Shown here in pieces: positions 409-14,899 of a stretch of DNA of 14,940 nucleotides. The DNA comes from a virus: UHGV virus genome UHGV-0315034, one strand, 5' to 3'. Both the position numbers and the translations under genes were made by a program. Numbering within the stretch: the stretch's first letter is position 1; each line of letters starts with the position of its first letter. The notes beneath the pieces were generated by a model that saw nothing but the letters and a program-made list of their open reading frames with translations, was not told the DNA's origin and searched no databases.

Positions 409-953
409 GGATTACTCCGGATACCGCCAATCACCAGCCTGCCGTGCGGGTCGTCGTAAGCCAGTGCCTGCTGCTGACCGAGTATTTTGTTGATTACCTC
501 AATCACCGTTTCACCGTGATCAGGCTGAACATCAGGAATAACACCCGACGGCGCACCGCTGTTCACCACCTCAATGCCGAAAGGCGCAGCAAGCGCCTGC
601 GCAATCTGCACCAGCGAGCGTCCGTTAAACTGTGTCGGTTCGGCTGCACAGTCAATCAGGTCAGCCGTCAGACTACGTCCGGCAATACCGGTGCTGACCG
701 AACGGGAATCGTAACGAACGGGCGTCGCCTCCACCCAGCCGGTGATCACCAGCTCATCACCAATCAGCACTTCCACTTTTGAACCGTTTTTAATGCGCGG
801 CTGAAGCGTGGTGATACCCTCATCTCCCGGCCACTGGCGGGTGATCTCCACACTGAAATCCCGCGCCAGCCGTTCAATACCGGCACCGATGCGCACCGAT
901 GTCCAGCCATTCCACTCCCGGCCATTTACCCGTAGCGTGACATTGTCGTTCAT
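396..953 (-). CDS. Truncated baseplate protein fragment (Mu gpP / P2 gpD-like N-terminal region)
   Basis: 185-aa ORF; N-terminus [22 protein letters not shown] resembles the start of gpD/Mu-P baseplate hub proteins, which are about twice as long. Overlaps the tail fibre start by 13 nt. Likely a remnant. Confidence 0.35.
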
Positions 954-2473
954 TGCACTGGCACCTTCAGAGGGATCACCGGCACAAAGCCGGGATGCGT
1001 AATGGCATTACGCCGGATAATGTCCGCGTCACGCGCCGCGTTATCAAACCAGGTCGCCGCCAGCACCAGCGCGGGTAAAACCTCATCCGGTGTGCGCTGA
1101 ATGATCCGTGCAGACTGTTCAAGGCGCGTGTTGATATCCGCATTCAGATCTGCTTTCACCCGGCGCAGCGCCAGAAACAGCGCATCGCTGGTTGTACGGG
1201 ACAACTCCTTATCAATTGCCGTATTCAGTGTGTCGCGAATGTCAGTCAGTTCTTCCCACGTCGGCAGGTCAACCGTGTTTTTCACCGCCGGTGCATTGTT
1301 CAGTGCCGGATGCGTGACGGAAGGCCAGCCAGTGCTCTGCGCGGGTGTTGTTGCCTGCCCCACTGCGGAATTCTGCATCACCGCGGAAGTTGTTGGCGCA
1401 GGCAATCGGGTGACGGCATACGCCGCTTCGCTGATTGCGGTCGTACGAAGGGTGCTGGCAACCACGTTACGCTGCTGCGTCGCCGTGGCGGTGGTTTTAC
1501 TGTCCGTTTTCCAGACGCCGCGCGGTTGCAGATCGCTGCCGAGGCTGACACCGGAAAGCGTTTTGATCATGGTGACCAGGTCGCTGGCGTTACCATAAAG
1601 GCGTTTCCCGGTACGCCACATTTTCTGCACCTGCTCAACGAAATTTTTGCCTGACGATGGCGGCGGCAGAAGTACCGAGATATCCCCCTGCAACAGCCTG
1701 GCGGCATCCGATACGGCAGAATCCACCACTTTCATCGCATCAGAAACATACCCAAGCATTGTGCTGGCATTACCGATAACGTCGTTCTGCACGAAATCCG
1801 CCACACCATCGATACTGAAACCGCTGAAGCTGTCACTGATGCGGTCATCCAGTGCAGAACAGGATGACATCAGCGTCTGCGCCGTCGCCGCACCTGATGT
1901 GGGGTAAGAGAGTTCTCCTGCTTCGACAAACTTCAGGTCAAAGCGGACAATACGCCCTTCACTTTTCGATGTGCTGACCCGAACTTCCCCGTCAACACAG
2001 ACTTTCAGCTCACCATATGTCGGGTGGACAAGCGTGCCGGGACCGGGTTTATTCAGCGCTTCAATCAGGCGATCGCGCTGGTCAAAGCAGTCATCTCCCA
2101 CCACATAAGCTGTGATGGACGGGCGGAAAGTGACTTTTCCCAGATCTTCGGTATGGCGTAACGACTGGATAGTGGTGATATCACCGGTTACGACATCAAC
2201 CAGGTCTTTGGTTTCATAACCGAGATATGTGTGTTTGAGAGCATCTTTTACCCAAGCTGGAGTGGCGAACGTTTTACCCCTGCTGATGAGGTATTCACTG
2301 ATTTCGCTGTACCACATGTGGCTGAGTGCATTCTGGGAAAGACTGCGTCTCTCGCGCCACGGTTTAAGCACCATGCGAAAGCATTTGCCGTCCTCCAGAT
2401 AAGGCTGGATCTGCCGACCGATAGCGGTGAAGTTACCGCGATGCAATTTGATACCATCTTGTGGGAGGTTCAC
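950..2473 (-). CDS. Chimeric ORF: NinB-like N-terminus (about 100 aa) fused in frame to Mu gpN-like DNA-circulation/baseplate protein
   Basis: N-terminal segment [23 protein letters not shown]...AWVKDALK matches the lambda NinB/Orf pattern (ERNRSLDQN...ESWKCVFTAALK) as recalled. Remainder ([32 protein letters not shown]...) resembles Mu N-type proteins. RBS GGAGGTG 7 nt upstream of ATG 2473. Confidence 0.5.
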
Positions 2474-2748: not shown

Positions 2749-4167
2749 ATGAAATATTTCTCAACTGGTTTTTATGTTTCAAACTCCACATCTCTAGCTG
2801 AGATCTTTAATGAATGTTTTTCTTGGGTAAACGACTCACCACATACAACTTTTATTCCAGCACAATTAGTATGTGATTATAAAAGCGAGGAGTACTTCAT
2901 AGAGTCTAAAAATGAAAGAATTGATATAATAACTTATAAAAACAAAGATACTAGTTTAGGCTGTTTTAGGTATTCGAAAATATCTGAGCCACACAAATGG
3001 GTAACAGATATTTCAATTAATAAAAATCTCAAAACTGATACCATGTGGATTCAGGTGGAATCTAGCGTTGTAAGCCAAGATGCAGCTTATCTAGCCCCGC
3101 AACCTAAGAAACCATTAGTTGTTATGAGATTGATTGATAAATTTCCTGGTGGTCTTGATGATATTTTCAAGGTGTCAGTCGAACCTCATTCCTTAGATGA
3201 TACTGATGAACATTTAAATATAGCAGCTAAAGTTATAAATGGTGAAACTGACAACAGACTACCAATAATATACGTTAGCTCCAAGTATTTTTTTAATGAA
3301 CATGCTCACAATATCATCCCAGAACGCCTTGCAAGAAAGGTATGCGGATTAGCACATGTATTAATTGAGCCTAGCAATAGACTATTTTCTATTAAGCTAA
3401 AAAATGAGACAAATGCTAAAAATGCCTATGCTGGTGCTGTTGGTATCTATTGGCCACGGGGTCAAAATATCAGTTTTTATCGCCGTGGTGAGAAAACCGC
3501 AAAAGAATTTGAAGATGAGTTATTTGATGATGTTGTAAGAGCTACGACTACAATGGCTCCTGTCTCAGATAGTGGATGGAGTGAGATACAAACCAGAAAA
3601 ACGAAAGACTCTATTAACTCACTCAAAGAAAGAGGAGAATACACACGCGAACTGATGGCGCTTTACGAAGCCGATAATGTTGCGAAAGATGACCAAATAG
3701 AAGATCTTAAGCATAAGATCTCCTCTTTAGAGCACAGAGTACGCACTCTTCAATCACAAGCTTCAGCCCAAGGAAGCATTGCGCTTAATGCTGGTGAAGA
3801 GACTGACTTTTTTGATGGAGAAATCAAAAATATAATTATTGACGCACTAAAAACTGCCATAAAAAATAAAAATGAATTTGGTAGAAGCTACCATATCTTA
3901 TCATCCCTAATTGCCAATAATGAATACAATAAAGAAACCGAGAGTCGCCGCCAATTACTTAAAAGGACTTTAACAGGTTACAGAAGCATGGATAGCGCAA
4001 CACAAAGAAATTTAAAGGACTTAGGTTTCAGTGCGTCAAGCGATGGAAAACACTGGAAGTTAACATATAATGAAGACCCTCGATATTCCTATATTTTACC
4101 TAAAACAGGAAGTGACCACAGAGGTTCTTTAAATGCTATCTCGGATATAGCAAATATTATTTTCTAA
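2749..4167 (+). CDS. Hypothetical 472-aa protein of unknown function in an AT-rich island (candidate exclusion/defence moron)
   Basis: Long ORF on the strand opposite to the pR operon; AAGGA 8-9 nt upstream of ATG; tandem stops TAATAA. Lys/Asn-rich, reflecting low GC. Central coiled-coil-like segment DQIEDLKHKISSLEHRVRTLQSQ. No Walker A or other motif I can recognise. Confidence 0.6.
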   Translation: MKYFSTGFYVSNSTSLAEIFNECFSWVNDSPHTTFIPAQLVCDYKSEEYFIESKNERIDIITYKNKDTSLGCFRYSKISEPHKWVTDISINKNLKTDTMWIQVESSVVSQDAAYLAPQPKKPLVVMRLIDKFPGGLDDIFKVSVEPHSLDDTDEHLNIAAKVINGETDNRLPIIYVSSKYFFNEHAHNIIPERLARKVCGLAHVLIEPSNRLFSIKLKNETNAKNAYAGAVGIYWPRGQNISFYRRGEKTAKEFEDELFDDVVRATTTMAPVSDSGWSEIQTRKTKDSINSLKERGEYTRELMALYEADNVAKDDQIEDLKHKISSLEHRVRTLQSQASAQGSIALNAGEETDFFDGEIKNIIIDALKTAIKNKNEFGRSYHILSSLIANNEYNKETESRRQLLKRTLTGYRSMDSATQRNLKDLGFSASSDGKHWKLTYNEDPRYSYILPKTGSDHRGSLNAISDIANIIF

Positions 4168-4537: not shown

Positions 4538-4825
4538 CTACCCTCTTCCATATAAAGCCAACACCCGCTTCATCGCGGCACTTTGACGACACTCCTTAAA
4601 AATCAGATTCGTGCTCACCTTTCCTTCCCGTTCTTCTCTGGTAGCGAACCGGTAATACACCGTTCGCCAGACCTTACCATCAACGACCAGGATTCCTGCC
4701 CGCGCCATTTTAGCCGCAGCCTGATTTATGCTGGTTACGGTTGCGCCTGTTACCGCGGCAACGTCCTGCGCACAGAAGTTCTTATGAGTCCCCAGGTAAT
4801 GAATAATTGCCTCTTTGCCCGTCAT
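4538..4825 (-). CDS. ren: Ren protein (lambda-type)
   Basis: Product MTGKEAIIHYLGTH...VWRTVYYRFATREEREGK closely matches lambda Ren as recalled. ATGA overlap with the P stop. Confidence 0.9.
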   Translation of the reverse strand: MTGKEAIIHYLGTHKNFCAQDVAAVTGATVTSINQAAAKMARAGILVVDGKVWRTVYYRFATREEREGKVSTNLIFKECRQSAAMKRVLALYGRG

Positions 4826-5523
4826 ACACTTGCTCCTTTCAGCCCAAACTTCGCTTTGATTTCTGCGATCTTCGCCAGAGACTGAACACGATTAAGCGGT
4901 CTCCCGCCCATAACAGGAAGTTGTTTTACTGGTTCCGGTATCGCCTCACCACGGTTAATTCGCGCTGTCATACAGGCCAGTTCATCGGCAGCCTTGCGCC
5001 GTAATTCCGCATCAGTCAGCGCATTGGCCCGCATGTTCTGATACAGGTTGGTAACCAGCCAGTAGTGCGCGTTTGATTTCCACGGATAAGACTCTGCATC
5101 CGGATACAGGCCACGTTTCCGGCAATACTCGTAAACCATATCAACCAGCTCGCTGGCGTTTGGCAGCCCGGCGGTAACGGATGCTTCTTCCCGGCACCAG
5201 GCAACAAACTGCCCGGGTGATGGCAGGAATGGTCGATTCTGCCGACGGGCTACGCGCATTCCTGCGTTAACCTGTTCCATCGTGGTGATCCCGTTTTCCC
5301 GGAAAGCCAGAACCCACTGGCGGCGGATTTCGTTCAGTTCGTTCTGGTCCCGGTTAGCCAGGCTCGCCGGGAAAGTTGCCAGTAACTGGCTGAACACACC
5401 ATTGATGATCTGCGCTACCTGTTGTACCTGCGGCTTTTCGTCGTACTGTTCCGGCATGTTGTTGGCGATCCGGCGCATCTGCTCACGGTCAAAGTTAACC
5501 ATCTGTGCGGCGATGTTTTTCAT
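4822..5523 (-). CDS. P: Replication protein P (DnaB helicase loader), lambda-type
   Basis: 233 aa; MKNIAAQMVNFDREQMRRIANNMPEQYDEK... near-identical to lambda P as recalled. ATGA overlap with the O stop. Confidence 0.95.
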   Translation of the reverse strand: MKNIAAQMVNFDREQMRRIANNMPEQYDEKPQVQQVAQIINGVFSQLLATFPASLANRDQNELNEIRRQWVLAFRENGITTMEQVNAGMRVARRQNRPFLPSPGQFVAWCREEASVTAGLPNASELVDMVYEYCRKRGLYPDAESYPWKSNAHYWLVTNLYQNMRANALTDAELRRKAADELACMTARINRGEAIPEPVKQLPVMGGRPLNRVQSLAKIAEIKAKFGLKGASV

Positions 5524-6539
5524 AAATCCACCCCGTAAATCCAGTCAGTGTTTGTCAGGTCGAGTTTTGATTTTCCGGCTGTCACGCCAGCCTGTTGCTT
5601 GTTACGGTTGATTTCGAGTTGGGTCCACTTGTCGCGGAGTTTGGCCGGACTTAGCACGTTACCGGACCAGAAGTTGTCCTGGCATGCCCAGCGGAACAGC
5701 ACGCACATGTCGCGGTGGTTACGGCCGTCACGTTCACGCATCAGGCGGATATCGTTAGCCCACCCTGCAAAATTCGGTTTTCTGGCTGATGGCGCGATGG
5801 TCTTCACCATGTCAAACATCCACTCTGCGGCGGTCAGGTCTTCTGCTGTCCCCCACTTGCTGCCACTCTGAATTGCAGCATCCGGTTTAACCACAGGAAG
5901 ATCGTCTTCTGGTTGGTCAGAGGATTCGCCAGAATTCTCGGACGAAAAAGGTTTTATATTGTCTTTTGTTAGTTTGTCTTTTGTGTTTACCTGATTCGGG
6001 TAAACGCCTTTACCTGATTTGGGTAAACTTTTCTTACCTGATTCAGGTAAATTTACCTCTTTCAGGTAAACTTTATTTTTCTTACCTGATTCGGGTAATG
6101 TTGACCATTCACTGACCACATTATTAATGCCTATATTCCGCCCGCTCTGAATAAAAATCCCACGCTTTACCAGAGCACTTTTTGCAGCAGAACACTTGTG
6201 CGGCAATATCCCGGTCAACTCGGAAAGTTGCTCGTTGCTCACCCAATCCAGTTTTTTATTAAAGCCATATGTTTTGCGCATGACAGCCAGGAAGACCAGA
6301 AGCTGGTGCTGTGTTAATCCGGCCAGCATTACAGCTTCCAGCAACTCATTTGCAATGCGCGTATAACCATCATCGAGATCTGCCACGCGCGGCTCCTTTT
6401 GTGCCGCATCCGGCACAGGAAAATTGAATATCTCAGCAGTGTTTGCCATAATTCCTCCCGCAATGAGTGTGTTACGATTTGCACCTGAAAGTCGGTTCTG
6501 TTCCCGCAGACCGACTTTCGCCATTTTTGAACCTGTCAT
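5520..6539 (-). CDS. O: Replication initiator O-like protein (diverged iteron-binding N-domain, lambda-like C-terminus)
   Basis: N-terminal ADLDDGYTRIANELLEA...LRKTYG matches the lambda O N-domain family. Iteron array lies inside the gene (encoded as repeated PESGKK). C-terminus ...TDWIYGVDL is lambda-O-like. ATGA overlap with the upstream gene. Confidence 0.85.
   Translation of the reverse strand: MTGSKMAKVGLREQNRLSGANRNTLIAGGIMANTAEIFNFPVPDAAQKEPRVADLDDGYTRIANELLEAVMLAGLTQHQLLVFLAVMRKTYGFNKKLDWVSNEQLSELTGILPHKCSAAKSALVKRGIFIQSGRNIGINNVVSEWSTLPESGKKNKVYLKEVNLPESGKKSLPKSGKGVYPNQVNTKDKLTKDNIKPFSSENSGESSDQPEDDLPVVKPDAAIQSGSKWGTAEDLTAAEWMFDMVKTIAPSARKPNFAGWANDIRLMRERDGRNHRDMCVLFRWACQDNFWSGNVLSPAKLRDKWTQLEINRNKQQAGVTAGKSKLDLTNTDWIYGVDL
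5988..6100. repeat. Origin of replication: five ~18-bp iterons (consensus TACCTGATTCGGGTAAAC) with adjacent AT-rich tract (5941..5987)
   Basis: Read directly: iterons at 5988..6005, 6011..6028, 6035..6052, 6054..6071, 6083..6100; the third contains the perfect palindrome TACCTGA-T-TCAGGTA. Same architecture as lambda ori inside O, but a different sequence from the lambda iterons. Confidence 0.8.
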
Positions 6540-7075
6540 ATTGCCCCCAACATGGTGGTAACCATCGCCATCAATGGACCAGCCAGATCCGGGTCCACAC
6601 GAAACATCGACACAATACCTTCACTCATCTCCTTCAGTTTCTGGTGGCGTGGTGCGTTGAGAATGACAGCCTGTTTTGCCTCACTGAGTTCCTTTTCCAT
6701 TTCAGCCAACCGAGTCATGAAGCTATCCTGCTCAACCAGGTAACCGCGATATTCCAGCGGTAGTACCGCCAGAATTGCCGGGGTCAGTTCACGCACGTTA
6801 TTTCGGTATTTTTCAGAATCGAATTTGTTATCGAGGAAGCGGAACAGCTTCTGGCGTGCACGGCTGACATCATCAGGGAAATCGATGGTGCCGCCGCCCT
6901 GCTCCCGATACTCATTCACAATGAGTGCGGCAACAACATCCTGATTATCTGCAGCCGACCAGGCGCGGACGGCATCACGGATTTTTTCGTGGCCTGGCAC
7001 CTGTTTTGTTTGAGAACGATTTATCACCGCAGTCGGGCTAAATCCGCTAGTCTGTTGGTATGTAAGTGGTTGCAT
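6536..7075 (-). CDS. Regulatory protein in the cII position (YdaT / CII-like family suspected)
   Basis: 179-aa ORF directly downstream of the cro-like gene and upstream of O, with RBS AAGGAG 6 nt before ATG. Much longer than lambda CII (97 aa); position mirrors ydaS-ydaT in Rac-type immunity regions. Family assignment is from recall only. Confidence 0.45.
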   Translation of the reverse strand: MQPLTYQQTSGFSPTAVINRSQTKQVPGHEKIRDAVRAWSAADNQDVVAALIVNEYREQGGGTIDFPDDVSRARQKLFRFLDNKFDSEKYRNNVRELTPAILAVLPLEYRGYLVEQDSFMTRLAEMEKELSEAKQAVILNAPRHQKLKEMSEGIVSMFRVDPDLAGPLMAMVTTMLGAI

Positions 7076-7144: not shown

Positions 7145-7375
7145 TTAAGCTGCGTTCTTTTCGGTGTGTGGAAACAACTTCGGAAGATCCGGGCGAATCT
7201 GGTATGCCTTCACTACTCCACCAGTAGCCGTAACAATGCTGCCGACATGTTCAGGGGATACCTTTGCTTTGTTGTGAAGCCACTTATAGACGGCCTGCTG
7301 TGAAACTTCGCAGGCAGCGCCCAGTTTCTTTTGTGAACCAACGATATTGATCGCTGTTTTGATAGCTGGGTTCAT
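7145..7375 (-). CDS. cro: Cro-like HTH repressor (YdaS-like)
   Basis: 76 aa with HTH segment KKLGAACEVSQQAVYKW; divergent from the cI-like gene; strong RBS GGAGG 5 nt before ATG. Confidence 0.8.
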   Translation of the reverse strand: MNPAIKTAINIVGSQKKLGAACEVSQQAVYKWLHNKAKVSPEHVGSIVTATGGVVKAYQIRPDLPKLFPHTEKNAA

Positions 7376-7479
7376 AACAACCTCCGTGGTTAATTCGAAT
7401 CAAGATTAAAACTATGGTTGTTTTTAGTCAACAACCATTTTCGTTTGATAGAATAAAACCTTGGTTGTACATTTGGACT
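7376..7479. promoter_or_regulatory. Divergent promoter/operator region (pR/pRM equivalent) with operator palindrome ATGGTTGTT-N7-AACAACCAT at 7414..7438
   Basis: Intergenic between divergent cro-like and cI-like genes; 9-bp perfect inverted arms read directly; extra GTTGT half-site at 7462..7468. Confidence 0.6.
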
Positions 7480-8169
7480 ATGAAAACAACACTCTCAGAA
7501 AGACTTAAAGAAGCCAGATTAGCGCGAGGCCTTACACAAAAGGCGCTTGGGGATTTGGTCGGGGTTAGCCAAGCTGCTATTCAGAAAATCGAAACAGGGA
7601 AAGCTAACCAAACAACTAAAATCGTGGAGATCGCGAACGCTTTGGGTGTGCGCGCAGAATGGTTATCTTCTGGCGTTGGAAATATGTCAGACAGTACAGT
7701 GCAACCAATACCATCAACTGTCAGCCATTCCAAATACTTTAAGATTGACGTTCTTGATATAGAAGTGAGTGCCGGGCCGGGAGTCATCAACCGTGAGTTT
7801 GTAGAAGTTCTACGCTCGGTTGAGTACTCGTTTGACGATGCTCGTCACATGTTCGATGGTAGGAAGGCAGAAAATATCCGCATCATTAACGTACGCGGTG
7901 ACAGCATGTCAGGAACGATCGAACCAGGTGATCTGCTGTTCGTTGATATCACGGTTAAATCTTTCGACGGTGATGGCATCTATGCGTTTCTGTACGACGA
8001 CACCGCCCATGTAAAGCGCCTGCAAATGATGAAGGATAAGCTGCTGGTTATCTCTGATAACAAGAGCTACTCACCGTGGGACCCGATCGAGAAAGACGAG
8101 ATGAACCGGGTGTTTATCTTCGGGAAAGTTATTGGGAGCATGCCGCAAACATATAGGAAGCATGGTTAG
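7480..8169 (+). CDS. cI: CI-type prophage repressor (N-terminal HTH plus C-terminal LexA/S24-like autocleavage domain)
   Basis: HTH LSERLKEARLARGLTQKALGDLVGVSQAAIQKIETGK; C-terminal RGDSMSGTIEPGDLLFVD...VKR matches the S24 peptidase Ser/Lys motif region. Start chosen at ATG 7480; the ORF-track start at 7414 lies inside the operator palindrome. Confidence 0.85.
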   Translation: MKTTLSERLKEARLARGLTQKALGDLVGVSQAAIQKIETGKANQTTKIVEIANALGVRAEWLSSGVGNMSDSTVQPIPSTVSHSKYFKIDVLDIEVSAGPGVINREFVEVLRSVEYSFDDARHMFDGRKAENIRIINVRGDSMSGTIEPGDLLFVDITVKSFDGDGIYAFLYDDTAHVKRLQMMKDKLLVISDNKSYSPWDPIEKDEMNRVFIFGKVIGSMPQTYRKHG

Positions 8170-8240
8170 CTAAAACACAAGATAGACTTACCTACAAACA
8201 ACCACCAGTTAAAATAAATAAAAATCAAAGAGATAATGTC

Positions 8241-9152
8241 ATGAGCCATCAGTCCGCCCACCAACAAGAAATGTCTTTATTTCCTGTAAAAGAAGTTGAA
8301 GTAAACGGTGTACAAATGGGTGTTCTCAATGATGGAACTCCATTTTTGAGTCTCCGTGGATTATCTAGGTTATGTGGGGTCGATCACACCACACTTTTAC
8401 CTCTCACCACCAACTGGTCAATAGAAAAGAATAAACCCAGAGGAAGGAGAATTGCGGAGCTTCTTTCAGAGAATGGTTTTAAAGGTGATCAATTATATTC
8501 CGTTGTCGGCGGAGGCGCATTTGGTGATACACATGCCTATCCAGATGCCGTATGCATGGCAATTCTTGAATATTATGCTTTCGATGCCACACAGGTTGAT
8601 AGCACTATAGCCAGGAAAAATTACCGCCTATTAGCACGTCAAACACTTCGAGACTATATATACAAAAGTGTAGGTATTGACCCGAGAAATCCAATTAGTG
8701 GCGCCTGGAAATGTTTTCAAGAGCGAATATTGCTTAATGACAAAATTCCTGCAGGTTTCTTCAGTGTTTTTAGAGAGATGGTCGATATCACAGTTCCACT
8801 TATCAATGCAGGATTTGAGCTTGGCCCAAAAACAGTACCTGATATTAGTGTGGGTGGACGATGGGCAATCCACTGGAAGAAAAACAATCTTAGTGAAAAA
8901 TATGGCGATGTGAAAAAATATCCACATGAATATCCAGATTGGTTTCCTCAAAGTAAAGCAGGAAAAGTTCCTGCCAATATTTATCCGGAAGAGGCTTTAG
9001 GTGAATTTCGCAGATGGCTAAGAGAAGAATACATTCCAAAGGGTTTCAAAGATTATCTTGCTGATAAAGTTCAGCAGAAAGTAATTGAAAATACTAAGGC
9101 TATTGAAGTTTTAGAAAATTTGCAGCGCCCAAATCTCCCTAAGGCTCGTTAA
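8241..9152 (+). CDS. 303-aa protein in the rex slot downstream of cI; KilA-N/Bro-N-like N-terminus; possible BstA-family abortive-infection protein
   Basis: Co-oriented 72 bp downstream of cI and followed by a clean terminator. N-terminal VNGVQMGVLNDGTPFLSLRGLSRLCGVDHTTL resembles KilA-N-type DNA-binding domains. Size and position match what I recall of BstA; not lambda RexA by recall. AT-richer than flanking phage genes. Confidence 0.45.
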   Translation: MSHQSAHQQEMSLFPVKEVEVNGVQMGVLNDGTPFLSLRGLSRLCGVDHTTLLPLTTNWSIEKNKPRGRRIAELLSENGFKGDQLYSVVGGGAFGDTHAYPDAVCMAILEYYAFDATQVDSTIARKNYRLLARQTLRDYIYKSVGIDPRNPISGAWKCFQERILLNDKIPAGFFSVFREMVDITVPLINAGFELGPKTVPDISVGGRWAIHWKKNNLSEKYGDVKKYPHEYPDWFPQSKAGKVPANIYPEEALGEFRRWLREEYIPKGFKDYLADKVQQKVIENTKAIEVLENLQRPNLPKAR

Positions 9153-9159
9153 TTCTCAT

Positions 9160-9186
9160 CCCGGCTGCCATGCCGGGTTTCTTTTG
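9160..9186 (+). terminator. Rho-independent terminator (stem CCCGGC/GCCGGG, loop TGCCAT, then TTTCTTTTG)
   Basis: Read directly, 8 nt after the stop of the 303-aa gene. Confidence 0.7.
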
Positions 9187-9289
9187 CCTTCTCCTCATCA
9201 CACACCGTTCAAAAAACCACCACGACCTCGCTTCAGTTATCGCTATGCGATGCAAGTCACAAAATAAATCCATCTTAAATACAACCAGT

Positions 9290-9350
9290 TATATCTAAAA
9301 CAACCAACAAAACAACTTTTGTTGTTGACGATAAAACAACTATAGTTTTA
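9290..9350 (+). promoter_or_regulatory. pL/oL-equivalent region: palindrome AACAAC-TTTT-GTTGTT (9311..9326), extra AACAAC half-sites, TTGACG -35-like hexamer
   Basis: Read directly; shares the GTTGTT/AACAAC half-site with the 7414..7438 operator; located upstream of the gam-bet-exo operon on the same strand. Exact -10 not confidently assigned. Confidence 0.4.
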
Positions 9351-9426
9351 AATGAATTCATCGCAACAACACAACGATACGGCAATCACCTGATTCACCG
9401 TTGCGATGACCGCTTAGATCCGCAGC

Positions 9427-9837
9427 TTGAATTTCAGCAGGCTCCGGGGAGTGCGAGGGGTGAAGCGGACGCGTGAACGTCGGTGTGACCAGCTGAAATC
9501 AACTCAACACTTCATACCTCAGTCGCTTCAACGAGGCGGCTTAGTTATGACAACCGGCGGCCATCCACCGCCTGAATACGCGCAGAAGTCTCTATATGTT
9601 CAGCAGCCCAGCTTACGGGCAGGAGTTTTTATGGTTCATCAACATTACGGAACGCAGACCGTTAATCGAGGTGCGGTCATGCCAGGAATGCTGGTCAAAC
9701 ACAAAGATGGTACCTGGACTGCATCAGCTAATTTACGCGGACGGCTATATCTGCATCGCGGCATCGAGCGCACTTATACCCGTGATTTGCTCGTGGAAGT
9801 TTTTCTCGACGGACGCGGTAACGGCCTGAATCACTAA
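9427..9837 (+). CDS. Hypothetical early protein downstream of pL; Arg-rich N-terminus (possible N-like antiterminator); start codon uncertain
   Basis: Open frame of 136 codons from a TTG start; N-terminal [15 protein letters not shown] resembles an arginine-rich RNA-binding motif (lambda N has QTRRRERRAEK). Alternative ATG starts at 9547 and at 9631, the latter with AGGAG 6 nt upstream. No similarity to lambda N, kil or cIII by recall. Confidence 0.3.
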
Positions 9838-11677: not shown

Positions 11678-11832
11678 AGCATCCTCGCGATAATATCCGG
11701 GTAGGCGCGATCACTTTCATCTACTCCGTTACAAAGCGAGGCTGGGTATTTCCCGGCCTTTCTGTTATCAGAAATCCACTGAAAGCACAGCGGCTGGCTG
11801 AGGAGATAAATAATAAACGGGAGAGTGTATGA
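11674..11832 (+). CDS. Small ORF (52 aa) translationally coupled to exo and to the downstream gene
   Basis: Own translation: [52 protein letters not shown]; ATGA overlaps at both ends. Below the ORF-track size cut-off. Occupies the position of lambda orf60a. Confidence 0.45.
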
Positions 11833-12581
11833 TTCATTTTCACGGTGGTCCAATAACTCCCGATACCTGTGCGTTGAAAGCCTGGAAAGGCAGACACGCA
11901 TTCATCAGTTTTGCTAATCCAGCTCAGATTGATCTGGCTTCCGAAGTCACCCAATCATTTGCTCTTGATAATGGTGCATTCACATTCTGGACAAAAAACA
12001 AGGCCGTAGACTGGAATGAATATTACAGATTTGTTGAACGCTGGGGTAATCACCCTCGTTTCTCATTCGCGGTTATCCCGGATGTTATCGGCGGAACCAG
12101 TGAAGAGAATGACGCCCTGATTGCGGCATGGCCTCACGGTAAATTTATTGGTGCTCCGGTGTGGCACATGAACGAACCAGATGAGCGATTTATTCGTCTG
12201 TGCCATGAGTTTCCCCGCGTCTGCATCGGCTCGATGGGGGAATACGATGCAAAACGACCGAGAGCGTGTCGGGCTAAACTACGCGATCTTATACGTCATG
12301 TTGTAGATCAGTACGGCTACCCAATCACCAAGATTCATGGGTTACGGATGTTAAATAAAGACATTTTTACTCATGTACCGCTTTCGTCTGCAGACAGCAC
12401 GAACGTCGCAAGAAATATAGGCATCGACAAATCCTGGGTAGGTTCGCCATATGCTCCCGCAAGTAAAGAAACCCGTACGCAAGTTCTTGTGGAACGCATT
12501 GAATCATTCAACAGTGCCAGTTCACTTAATTACAACGCTGAACGGGACGTCTTTACCCCTCAACTGGCATTCGAAGTGTGA
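11829..12581 (+). CDS. 250-aa protein with TGT-fold (tRNA-guanine transglycosylase-like) motifs; candidate DpdA-type DNA guanine transglycosylase
   Basis: By eye against recalled E. coli Tgt: ALDNGAF (residues ~45-51) vs TDSGGFQ catalytic-Asp motif; CIGSMGEY (~132-139) vs GGLAVGE; SSADSTNVARN (~186-196) vs FDCVMPTRNARN, with similar spacing. No CxCxxC zinc subdomain. Not computed. Confidence 0.5.
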   Translation: MIHFHGGPITPDTCALKAWKGRHAFISFANPAQIDLASEVTQSFALDNGAFTFWTKNKAVDWNEYYRFVERWGNHPRFSFAVIPDVIGGTSEENDALIAAWPHGKFIGAPVWHMNEPDERFIRLCHEFPRVCIGSMGEYDAKRPRACRAKLRDLIRHVVDQYGYPITKIHGLRMLNKDIFTHVPLSSADSTNVARNIGIDKSWVGSPYAPASKETRTQVLVERIESFNSASSLNYNAERDVFTPQLAFEV

Positions 12582-13447: not shown

Positions 13448-13769
13448 GGCCTGTCAGTTTCTCAAGATATCCAGACCTACCGCTACCAACTGGATACGAA
13501 CAGGCCGCCTACAGGCAACACGCAAAGACCCCACTAAACTAAAATCTCCTTACCTCACAACACGACAAGCCTGCATTGCGGCGCTTCAGTCTCCGCTGCA
13601 TACTGTCCAGGTGAGCGCGGGTGATGGCATAACAGAGGAAAGAAAATGTCACTCTTCCGCAGAGGTGAAATATGGTACGCCAGTTTCACATTGCCGAACG
13701 GTAAAAGATTTAAACAGTCTCTTGGAACAAAGGACAAAAGGCAGGCGACAGAGCTCCATGACAAGCTAA
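13419..13769 (+). CDS. xis: Excisionase Xis (P22-type)
   Basis: [38 protein letters not shown]... matches P22 Xis as recalled; GAGG RBS; 124-nt overlap with the int start in a different frame. Confidence 0.85.
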
Positions 13770-14809
13770 AGGCTGAAGCATGGCGGGTCAGCAAACTTGG
13801 TGAAATACCTGATATGACGTTCGAGGAGGCGTGTATCAGGTGGCTCGAAGAGAAAGCACATAAAAAATCACTGGACGATGACAAAAGCCGGATCGGATTC
13901 TGGCTTCAACATTTCGCAGGAATGCAACTAAGAGACATTACTGAATCAAAAATTTATTCAGCAATGCAGAAAATGACGAACCGGCGTCATGAGGAAAACT
14001 GGAAACTCAGGGCAGAAGCATGCAGAAAAAAAGGGAAACCTGTTCCAGAATACACGCCAAAACCAGCGTCCGTTGCAACGAAGGCTACGCATCTTTCATT
14101 TATAAAGGCCCTACTAAGAGCCGCAGAGCGTGAATGGAAAATGCTGGATAAGGCACCAATTATTAAAGTGCCTCAACCAAAGAATAAACGGATCCGCTGG
14201 CTGGAGCCCCATGAAGCACAAAGGCTGATTGATGAATGTCCGGAGCCATTAAAGTCTGTTGTTGAATTTGCACTGGCAACAGGCTTAAGACGCTCGAACA
14301 TCATCAACCTTGAATGGCAACAAATAGATATGCAGCGCCGGGTGGCATGGATAAACCCGGAAGAGAGTAAATCAAACCGCGCAATCGGCGTTGCGCTGAA
14401 TGATACTGCATGTCGCGTTTTGAAAAAACAAATCGGGAATCATCACCGTTGGGTATTTGTGTACAAGGAAAGCTGTACCAAACCAGACGGAACGAAAGCG
14501 CCAACAGTAAGGAAGATGCGGTATGACGCAAACACAGCCTGGAAAGCGGCGCTGAGACGGGCTGGTATTGATGATTTCAGATTTCACGACTTGAGACACA
14601 CCTGGGCAAGTTGGCTGGTTCAAGCCGGAGTCCCGTTGTCAGTGTTACAGGAAATGGGAGGCTGGGAGTCTATCGAAATGGTTCGTCGATATGCTCACCT
14701 TGCACCTAATCACCTTACCGAACACGCACGGCAAATAGACTCGATCCTGAACCCATCGGTCCCAAATTTGTCCCAGTCAAAAAATAAGGAAGGTACTAAT
14801 GATGTGTAA
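13646..14809 (+). CDS. int: Tyrosine integrase (P22 Int-type)
   Basis: 387 aa; [47 protein letters not shown]... matches P22 Int as recalled; C-terminal [10 protein letters not shown]...YAHL catalytic region; ends 14 bp before the tRNA 3' end. Confidence 0.95.
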
Positions 14810-14823
14810 CTTATTGATTTAAA

Positions 14824-14899
14824 TGGTGCCGATAATAGGAGTCGAACCTACGACCTTCGCATTACGAATGCGCTGCTCTACCAACTGAGCTATATCGGC
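14824..14899 (-). tRNA. thrW: tRNA-Thr (anticodon CGU), thrW-type; prophage attachment junction overlaps its 3' end
   Basis: Reverse complement of 14824..14899 folds as a 76-nt cloverleaf: acceptor GCCGATA/TATCGGC, D-stem GCTC/GAGC, anticodon loop TTCGTAA, T-loop GGTTCGACTCC, encoded CCA. Confidence 0.9.

Follow-up and report, generated by a model that had tools for sequence, protein, structure and literature searches.

A BstA-family gene and an aba-like element between the repressor gene and PL of a lambdoid prophage

The stretch of DNA analyzed here (the window, 14.9 kb) is the early region of a lambdoid prophage. On its minus strand, the replication genes P and O (lambda O/P; 4822-6539) adjoin a YdaT-type cII analogue (6536-7075) and the gene of a cro-like regulator of the YdaS/P22_Cro family (7145-7375; Pfam YdaS_toxin, E=4e-17, and P22_Cro, E=8e-5), which is divergent from the repressor gene and is labelled 'transcriptional regulator' in E. 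coli JS01. The repressor, encoded on the plus strand, is of the cI type and contains the Pfam domains HTH_3 (E=6.5e-13) and Peptidase_S24 (E=1.5e-18). Its open reading frame (ORF) spans 7414-8169, of which 7480-8169 fits the cI start of the RefSeq strain JS01, where the gene is annotated as a 690-nt CDS, 'S24 family peptidase'. The cro/cI intergenic region also contains a 25-bp palindrome, ATGGTTGTT-N7-AACAACCAT (7414-7438), with both half-sites exact, which is likely to function as the OR operator.

The gene of interest, hereafter bstA, encodes a protein of 303 aa (8241-9152, plus strand). It begins 71 bp past the cI stop codon, on the same strand, and a terminator scan of the gap between both genes found no terminator-like site. 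The same type of scan located an intrinsic terminator behind the gene (9160-9187, plus strand), formed by a 6-bp, all-GC stem, CCCGGC-TGCCAT-GCCGGG (9160-9177), and then TTTCTTTTGC. Thus, the arrangement described in the initial annotation, a 303-aa gene after cI and then a strong terminator, is the one that is observed. Further to the right is a probable OL/PL region (9299-9353, plus strand), recognized by reading the sequence, where AACAAC/GTTGTT operator-like sites, with half-site matches at 9299 and 9335, accompany a TTGACG-17-TTAAAT candidate promoter; the promoter scan made no call at this place. The genes kil (9631-9837), gam, bet, and exo are also to the right of bstA, as is the integrase gene (13646-14809, plus strand), directly beyond which a tRNA-Thr(CGT) gene (14824-14899, minus strand) is likely to be the attachment site. 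In JS01, the matching immunity and bstA region is found in a prophage whose integrase adjoins ybhC instead of tRNA-Thr. Consequently, the module occurs in prophages with different integration modules.

No gene for an N-like antiterminator is present at 9188-9630, where a leader of ~280 nt extends from the probable PL (about 9325-9353) to kil; several active lambdoid phages of E. coli share this leader with 89-96% conservation. The presence of an RNA element, put-like or other, in the N-less leader was considered and discarded, as Rfam gave no match and the fold was not significant (z=-0.95). In the early-left operon, a 250-aa ORF (11829-12581, plus strand) matches PHROG 887, phage 'queuine tRNA-ribosyltransferase' (E=4e-99), and could be a DpdA-like DNA-modification gene. 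Elsewhere in the window, a 472-aa ORF (2749-4167, plus strand; GC 0.357) lies on the strand opposite to the flanking ren and ybcN-like genes. Pfam gave no match to it, and among the PADLOC models it weakly resembles HEC-07, a candidate defence family (E=1e-9). The gene, which is also present in JS01 and annotated there as hypothetical, might be further defence cargo alongside bstA.

From position, size, and a short motif, the 303-aa protein had initially been proposed to be of the BstA type, and this proposal is borne out by alignment and profile comparison, in which similarity to BstA is significant and full-length. The match to the PADLOC BstA model (E=7.1e-122) covers residues 5-297 of 303 and model positions 3-290 of 292, and the match to PHROG 6287, 'BstA abortive infection system, replication inhibitor' (E=7.5e-141), covers positions 2-302 of 304. 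Identity to BstA (st313-td) of the Salmonella phage BTP1, with which the family was founded, is 72% over 299 residues. Moreover, ~980 homologues were found; PF26567, a precomputed Pfam domain, is present in every one of those listed, and relatives are named 'BstA-like' or 'BstA C-terminal domain-containing protein' by some sources. In an alignment of 69 family members, all 31 invariant columns are kept in the window protein. Given the full-length PADLOC and PHROG matches, the identity to the BTP1 protein, and a matching gene order, membership in the BstA family is secure.

The initial annotation had also described the N terminus as KilA-N/Bro-N-like, which raises the possibility that the protein is an antirepressor or regulator of that kind (Ant/Bro-like) that acts on prophage induction and not in defence. 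At the level of structure, DNA-binding domains of the APSES/KilA-N/Bro-N type (Iyer, Koonin and Aravind 2002) bear a weak resemblance to the predicted N-terminal fold, which is limited to one domain and has a low TM-score. At the level of sequence, the Pfam models of KilA-N (PF04383) and Bro-N (PF02498) gave no match to the window protein at E<1, and those of KilA-N, Bro-N, and ANT matched none of the 69 family members at E<10. Scans of the protein with NCBIfam and with a Pfam set lacking the PF26567 model returned nothing except a spurious sub-threshold match to DHQ_synthase. By contrast, the whole protein matches BstA models at E<1e-120, and the 72%-identical BTP1 protein has an experimentally established function in abortive infection (PMC8585504). 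In addition, and unlike KilA-N/Bro-N antirepressors, it has a C-terminal partner domain that is BstA-specific. In consequence, a function as an antirepressor is extremely improbable, and the protein is regarded here as a member of the BstA family.

In an AlphaFold2 (AF2) model of the protein (pLDDT 85, pTM 0.58), the N-terminal part is beta/alpha and the C-terminal part is helical, with pLDDT dropping to 70 at residues 151-160; the pTM would be consistent with the presence of two domains. A sequence search of the PDB gave nothing under E=0.6, a Foldseek search against the PDB gave no significant match, and, for the C-terminal domain, no significant solved structural relative was found.

In lambda, the slot between cI and PL is occupied by RexAB, which the lysogen expresses and which protects it from other phages by abortive infection (discussed in PMC8585504). 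Rex is composed of two proteins, a sensor and a membrane channel, rather than a single DNA-associated protein, and it is not known to have a DNA element for self-immunity. The window bstA shares the genomic slot of RexAB, but there is no sequence relationship between them: in the window, the slot contains one gene and not two, and the PADLOC scan returned just BstA and one weak HTH model.

The closest characterized system is BstA-BTP1 (st313-td, STMMW_03531; Owen et al. 2021, PMC8585504), whose protein is similar in size (307 vs 303 aa) and whose genes follow the same order of cro, cI, bstA, terminator, and PL, with bstA after cI on the same strand and a Rho-independent terminator behind it. 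The background is different: BTP1 is a P22-like phage, while the window belongs to a lambda-like prophage of E. coli whose cro/cII are of the YdaS/YdaT type and whose O/P are those of lambda. Lambda, phi80, P1, T7, P22, and 9NA are sensitive to BstA-BTP1, and T4 and T5 are not. Two other members of the family, BstA-Ec from E. coli NCTC10963 and BstA-Kp from K. pneumoniae Kp52.145, are ~40-48% identical to the BTP1 protein, confer defence, and have their own cognate aba each (PMC8585504). The window protein belongs to the same family as these, but is far closer to BTP1.

The BTP1 orthologue was first named, and annotated, st313-td and has a phenotypic link to virulence, and Owen et al. cite both virulence and anti-virulence phenotypes from earlier work (PMC8585504). 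From this, the gene might be viewed mainly as a virulence-modulating factor. Nevertheless, those phenotypes were described without a proposed mechanism, while a direct anti-phage mechanism has been demonstrated (PMC8585504), and the window protein carries no sequence sign of secretion or host targeting. A primary role in virulence is therefore very unlikely, although virulence and defence roles are not mutually exclusive.

The aba of BTP1 is 63 bp long, begins 29 bp upstream of bstA, takes in the first 34 bp of the gene, and has a CCCGCC direct repeat at each end (PMC8585504). A single G-to-T change in either repeat abolishes self-immunity, and mutations at several sites of the element affect its function (PMC8585504). 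For the window, an aba element had been expected inside the gene. A positional homologue does exist, but it straddles the start codon, as in BTP1, rather than lying within the coding sequence: it spans 8200-8262 (plus strand), that is, 41 bp upstream and the first 22 bp of bstA, and aligns to BTP1 aba without gaps, with 33 of 63 positions identical. From this positional homology, it probably functions as an aba element. Its terminal direct repeats are CCACCA, where BTP1 has CCCGCC(A). Copy 1 is non-coding (8202-8207, plus strand) and takes the position of the first BTP1 repeat, while copy 2 (8258-8263, plus strand) corresponds to codons 6-8 (A-H-Q). The two copies are 56 bp apart, the same spacing as in BTP1, they are at the same aligned positions, and they share one G-to-A difference from the BTP1 repeat. 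Copy 1 of the window is not preceded by the TTG that is present at this place in most other loci; this, and the match of only 33 of 63 positions in an element that mutations at several sites affect, weighs against a functional aba.

A CCACC pair at a spacing of 50-62 bp occurs only once in the whole 14.9-kb window. The CCACCA pair was checked directly; it is missing from the output of a general repeat finder, probably because that program skips runs of 1-3-base units, CCACCA among them. Even so, a pair of 6-nt repeats is not significant in the window alone, as ~10% of background windows equal its length in the same search. Since a single 6-mer pair is weak by itself, the argument for aba rests on positional homology and on co-variation across the family. 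Two other roles for this region were considered and set aside. Copy 1 might have been a cI operator half-site, as AACAACCAC (8197-8205) resembles the OR half-site AACAACCAT, but there are 6 one-mismatch matches where 4.7 are expected by chance. A promoter might also have been present inside the element, where there is a promoter-like match at 8209-8237, but shuffled sequence gives as many such matches as the region does, and, with a -10 element just 4 nt upstream of the ATG, there would be no ribosome-binding site.

The start codon of this allele is itself unusual. The sequence at 8225-8240 (plus strand) is a vestige of the start region that is usual in the family, as revealed by the comparison of start regions across loci (ATCAAAGAGATAATGTC in the window vs ATCAAATGGATAATGTC in locus L047). 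The motif of the usual start codon, ATCAAATGGATAA, reads ATCAAAGAGATAA in the window. With the usual ATG lost, translation must begin at the ATG at 8241, which is the earliest possible start downstream of an in-frame stop and is 12 nt downstream of the BTP1 start in the alignment. The changed bases have produced an AAAGAG sequence (8227-8232), 8 nt before this ATG, that can serve as a ribosome-binding site. Across other bstA loci (start regions of L004-L081), ATCAAATGGATAA is conserved around the start codon in genes whose proteins are 44-56% identical, and the encoded N-terminal tail is otherwise variable. This suggests a constraint at the DNA level in the center of aba as well as at its ends.

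The repeats were compared across 80 bstA loci from viral contigs, with 44-100% protein identity, and BTP1. In an unbiased search for the longest direct repeat in 54 distinct start regions, the first copy was found, in most loci, at about -43 to -38 from the anchor and with a spacing of 56-57 bp. The sequence of the repeat depends on the lineage: CCCGCCA, CCACCA, GCACCA, ACAGCA, CCCCA, GGTCAGCA, TCACCA, GAGCACCAC, GTCCCCACC, and TAGTCACCACCC are all observed. The listed pairs amount to about ten types in which the copies match or nearly match, and every switch of type needs changes in both. The non-coding upstream copy varies in step with the coding copy between lineages. Among 39 representatives, an upstream site fits the coding site of its own locus better than the coding sites found elsewhere in the family (permutation p=5e-5); the lineages are related by descent, and hence such p-values overstate independence. 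In a table of 28 lineages whose register was set by eye, the copies agree at position 3 of the repeat in 23 lineages (about 8 expected), at position 5 in 28 (about 19 expected), and at position 6 in 21 (about 11 expected), these three positions being the variable ones. This co-variation is not reported in the original BstA paper or in the later papers that could be searched.

It could be argued that the protein is indeed a BstA homologue, but that the repeats at the start of its gene have nothing to do with self-immunity and are instead translation or transcription signals, a coding constraint of the N-terminal tail, or the product of chance. Some observations agree with this: the frequency of a 6-mer at such a spacing in background windows, the promoter-like match inside the element (though at chance level for the region), and the coincidence of the center of the element with the conserved ribosome-binding site and start codon of the family. 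Furthermore, copy 2 is coding, and protein constraint could explain part of its conservation. Against it, point mutations in BTP1 at the same two positions show that they are essential for aba (PMC8585504), and the non-coding copy tracks the coding copy across roughly ten types. In addition, the spacing of 56-57 bp survives even where the start codon has shifted by 12 nt, and loci L004-L008 retain copy 1 although, apart from it, their DNA has diverged beyond alignment upstream of 8257. On balance, it is unlikely that the repeats are unrelated to self-immunity, and a cognate aba remains the preferred interpretation.

A more distant variant also bears on the extent of the repeat rule. This BstA protein, of 309 aa and 41% identical, is encoded by 110 of the 5426 complete genomes of E. 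coli (for instance, at 2189-3118 of L084, strain E6). It is located in a DLP12-like remnant, adjoining ybcK and a gene with a P22AR C-terminal domain, and not after a repressor gene. No clear repeat pair flanks its start, which is a further point in favor of repeats that lack a role in immunity; alternatively, the aba rule may be absent or look different in distant lineages. This variant was also considered as a link between the repeat rule and BstA-Ec, which has been tested experimentally, but the attempt was abandoned, as the variant was not matched to the NCTC10963 allele and has no clear pair.

The differences between alleles are unevenly distributed along the protein. Relative to BTP1 (CCCGCC type), identity of the window protein is 91% in residues 13-34, 35% in residues 35-103, 74% in residues 104-150, and 88% in residues 151-303. 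Relative to the proteins of L004-L007 (CCACC type), the values for the same intervals are 100%, 80-86%, 83-87%, and 85-88%. The hypervariable N-terminal segment (residues 35-103; 8343-8549, plus strand), which in the AF2 model would comprise helices at 38-77 and a hairpin at 87-101, thus follows the repeat type. Identity in the conserved C-terminal domain (residues 151-303; 8691-9149, plus strand), presumed to be the effector part, stays at 85-90%. In other words, a change of the repeats has been accompanied by replacement or divergence of segment 35-103, which is what cognate BstA-aba pairs predict. As it varies with the repeat type, this segment is nominated as the part of the protein that might read aba. 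The terminal repeats might then be a specificity code of BstA self-immunity read by residues 35-103, a proposal that is plausible but held here with slightly more doubt than belief.

The boundaries of the region that carries these features can be defined by comparison with the phage IdasGreatGrand. Its immunity region is 97.8% identical to the window up to 8169, and homology resumes at 9158, with 96.2% identity. In this phage, the slot (L083, 2002-3500) contains two unrelated hypothetical genes, of 357 and 125 aa. With breaks at 8169 and 9158, the cargo module is the 988-bp interval between the cI stop codon and the shared terminator (8170-9157, plus strand), in which the aba-like element and bstA travel together. 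As the terminator is inside the block of homology that resumes at 9158, it belongs to the shared backbone. The GC content of the module is 0.40, vs 0.47-0.55 in backbone genes. Between IdasGreatGrand and the window, the cargo has been exchanged with breakpoints exactly at the cI stop codon and 2 nt before the terminator stem; such cassette boundaries show how defence cargo is swapped in the cI-PL slot of lambdoid phages.

The prophage itself appears to be truncated. At its left, a chimeric ORF of 507 aa (950-2473, minus strand) has residues 1-108 identical to YbcN/NinB of E. coli JS01 and, from about residue 107, matches a Mu-like baseplate hub/DNA circulation protein (PHROG 184, E=7e-118), with the junction near nt 2150. 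This junction implies either that Q and the genes for lysis and the head have been lost from the lambdoid prophage, or that the tail module of another prophage has been fused to it. If so, selection for self-immunity may have ceased in this copy. It could also follow that bstA is an inactive relic of a decaying prophage, with an intact frame but unexpressed or non-functional. The fused ORF, the loss of the usual start codon in favor of a downstream ATG, and the rarity of the exact allele, found in 3 of 5426 complete E. coli genomes, are in line with this explanation. However, the ORF is full length and retains every invariant column of the family alignment, and the ATG now used is preceded by AAAGAG. 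Moreover, other genomes also carry the identical gene, as do two viral contigs in which its flanks differ, and cI, cro, O, and P are intact in the window. These observations make an inactive relic improbable.

Taken together, the gene at 8241-9152 very probably encodes a BstA-family abortive infection (Abi) protein, carried as cargo of a lambdoid prophage and expressed in lysogeny, with a cognate aba at 8200-8262. For this allele, expression, defence, self-immunity, and the part that binds each target are deduced from sequence. Most likely, bstA would be transcribed together with cI from the repressor promoter, with transcription being stopped by the terminator at 9160, and, by analogy with BTP1 and with the tested E. 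coli and Klebsiella homologues, BstA would be made constitutively in the lysogen. Upon superinfection, BstA would move to the replicating phage DNA and block its replication, such that the infected cell gives no progeny. The replicating DNA of the prophage itself would escape, as its cognate aba, with CCACCA ends, would neutralize BstA. The specificity of self-immunity of this allele is predicted to differ from that of BTP1, with its CCCGCC repeats, while the conserved C-terminal domain would carry the replication block that both proteins share.

BstA and aba are a kind of system that has already been described, and the gene is a further member of the family. Nevertheless, the allele, a 'hypothetical protein' in the annotation of RefSeq genomes, now has a confident assignment to a defence family that has been characterized. 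It is, in addition, a natural variant near the best-studied BstA, with effector domains that are 88% identical and with repeats and an N-terminal segment that differ. This combination makes it a convenient partner for domain- and repeat-swap studies of how aba switches BstA off. The nature of the BstA-aba interaction was left open by the original study (PMC8585504), and the added value of the present comparison is a specific, testable hypothesis for aba specificity. If this hypothesis is true, bstA loci would fall into discrete immunity types (CCCGCC, CCACCA, GCACCA, ACAGCA, GGTCAGCA, and others), among which the window would define a CCACCA type distinct from BTP1, and the two repeats and the protein segment would change in concert as these types evolve, in a manner similar to the immunity groups formed by operators and repressors.
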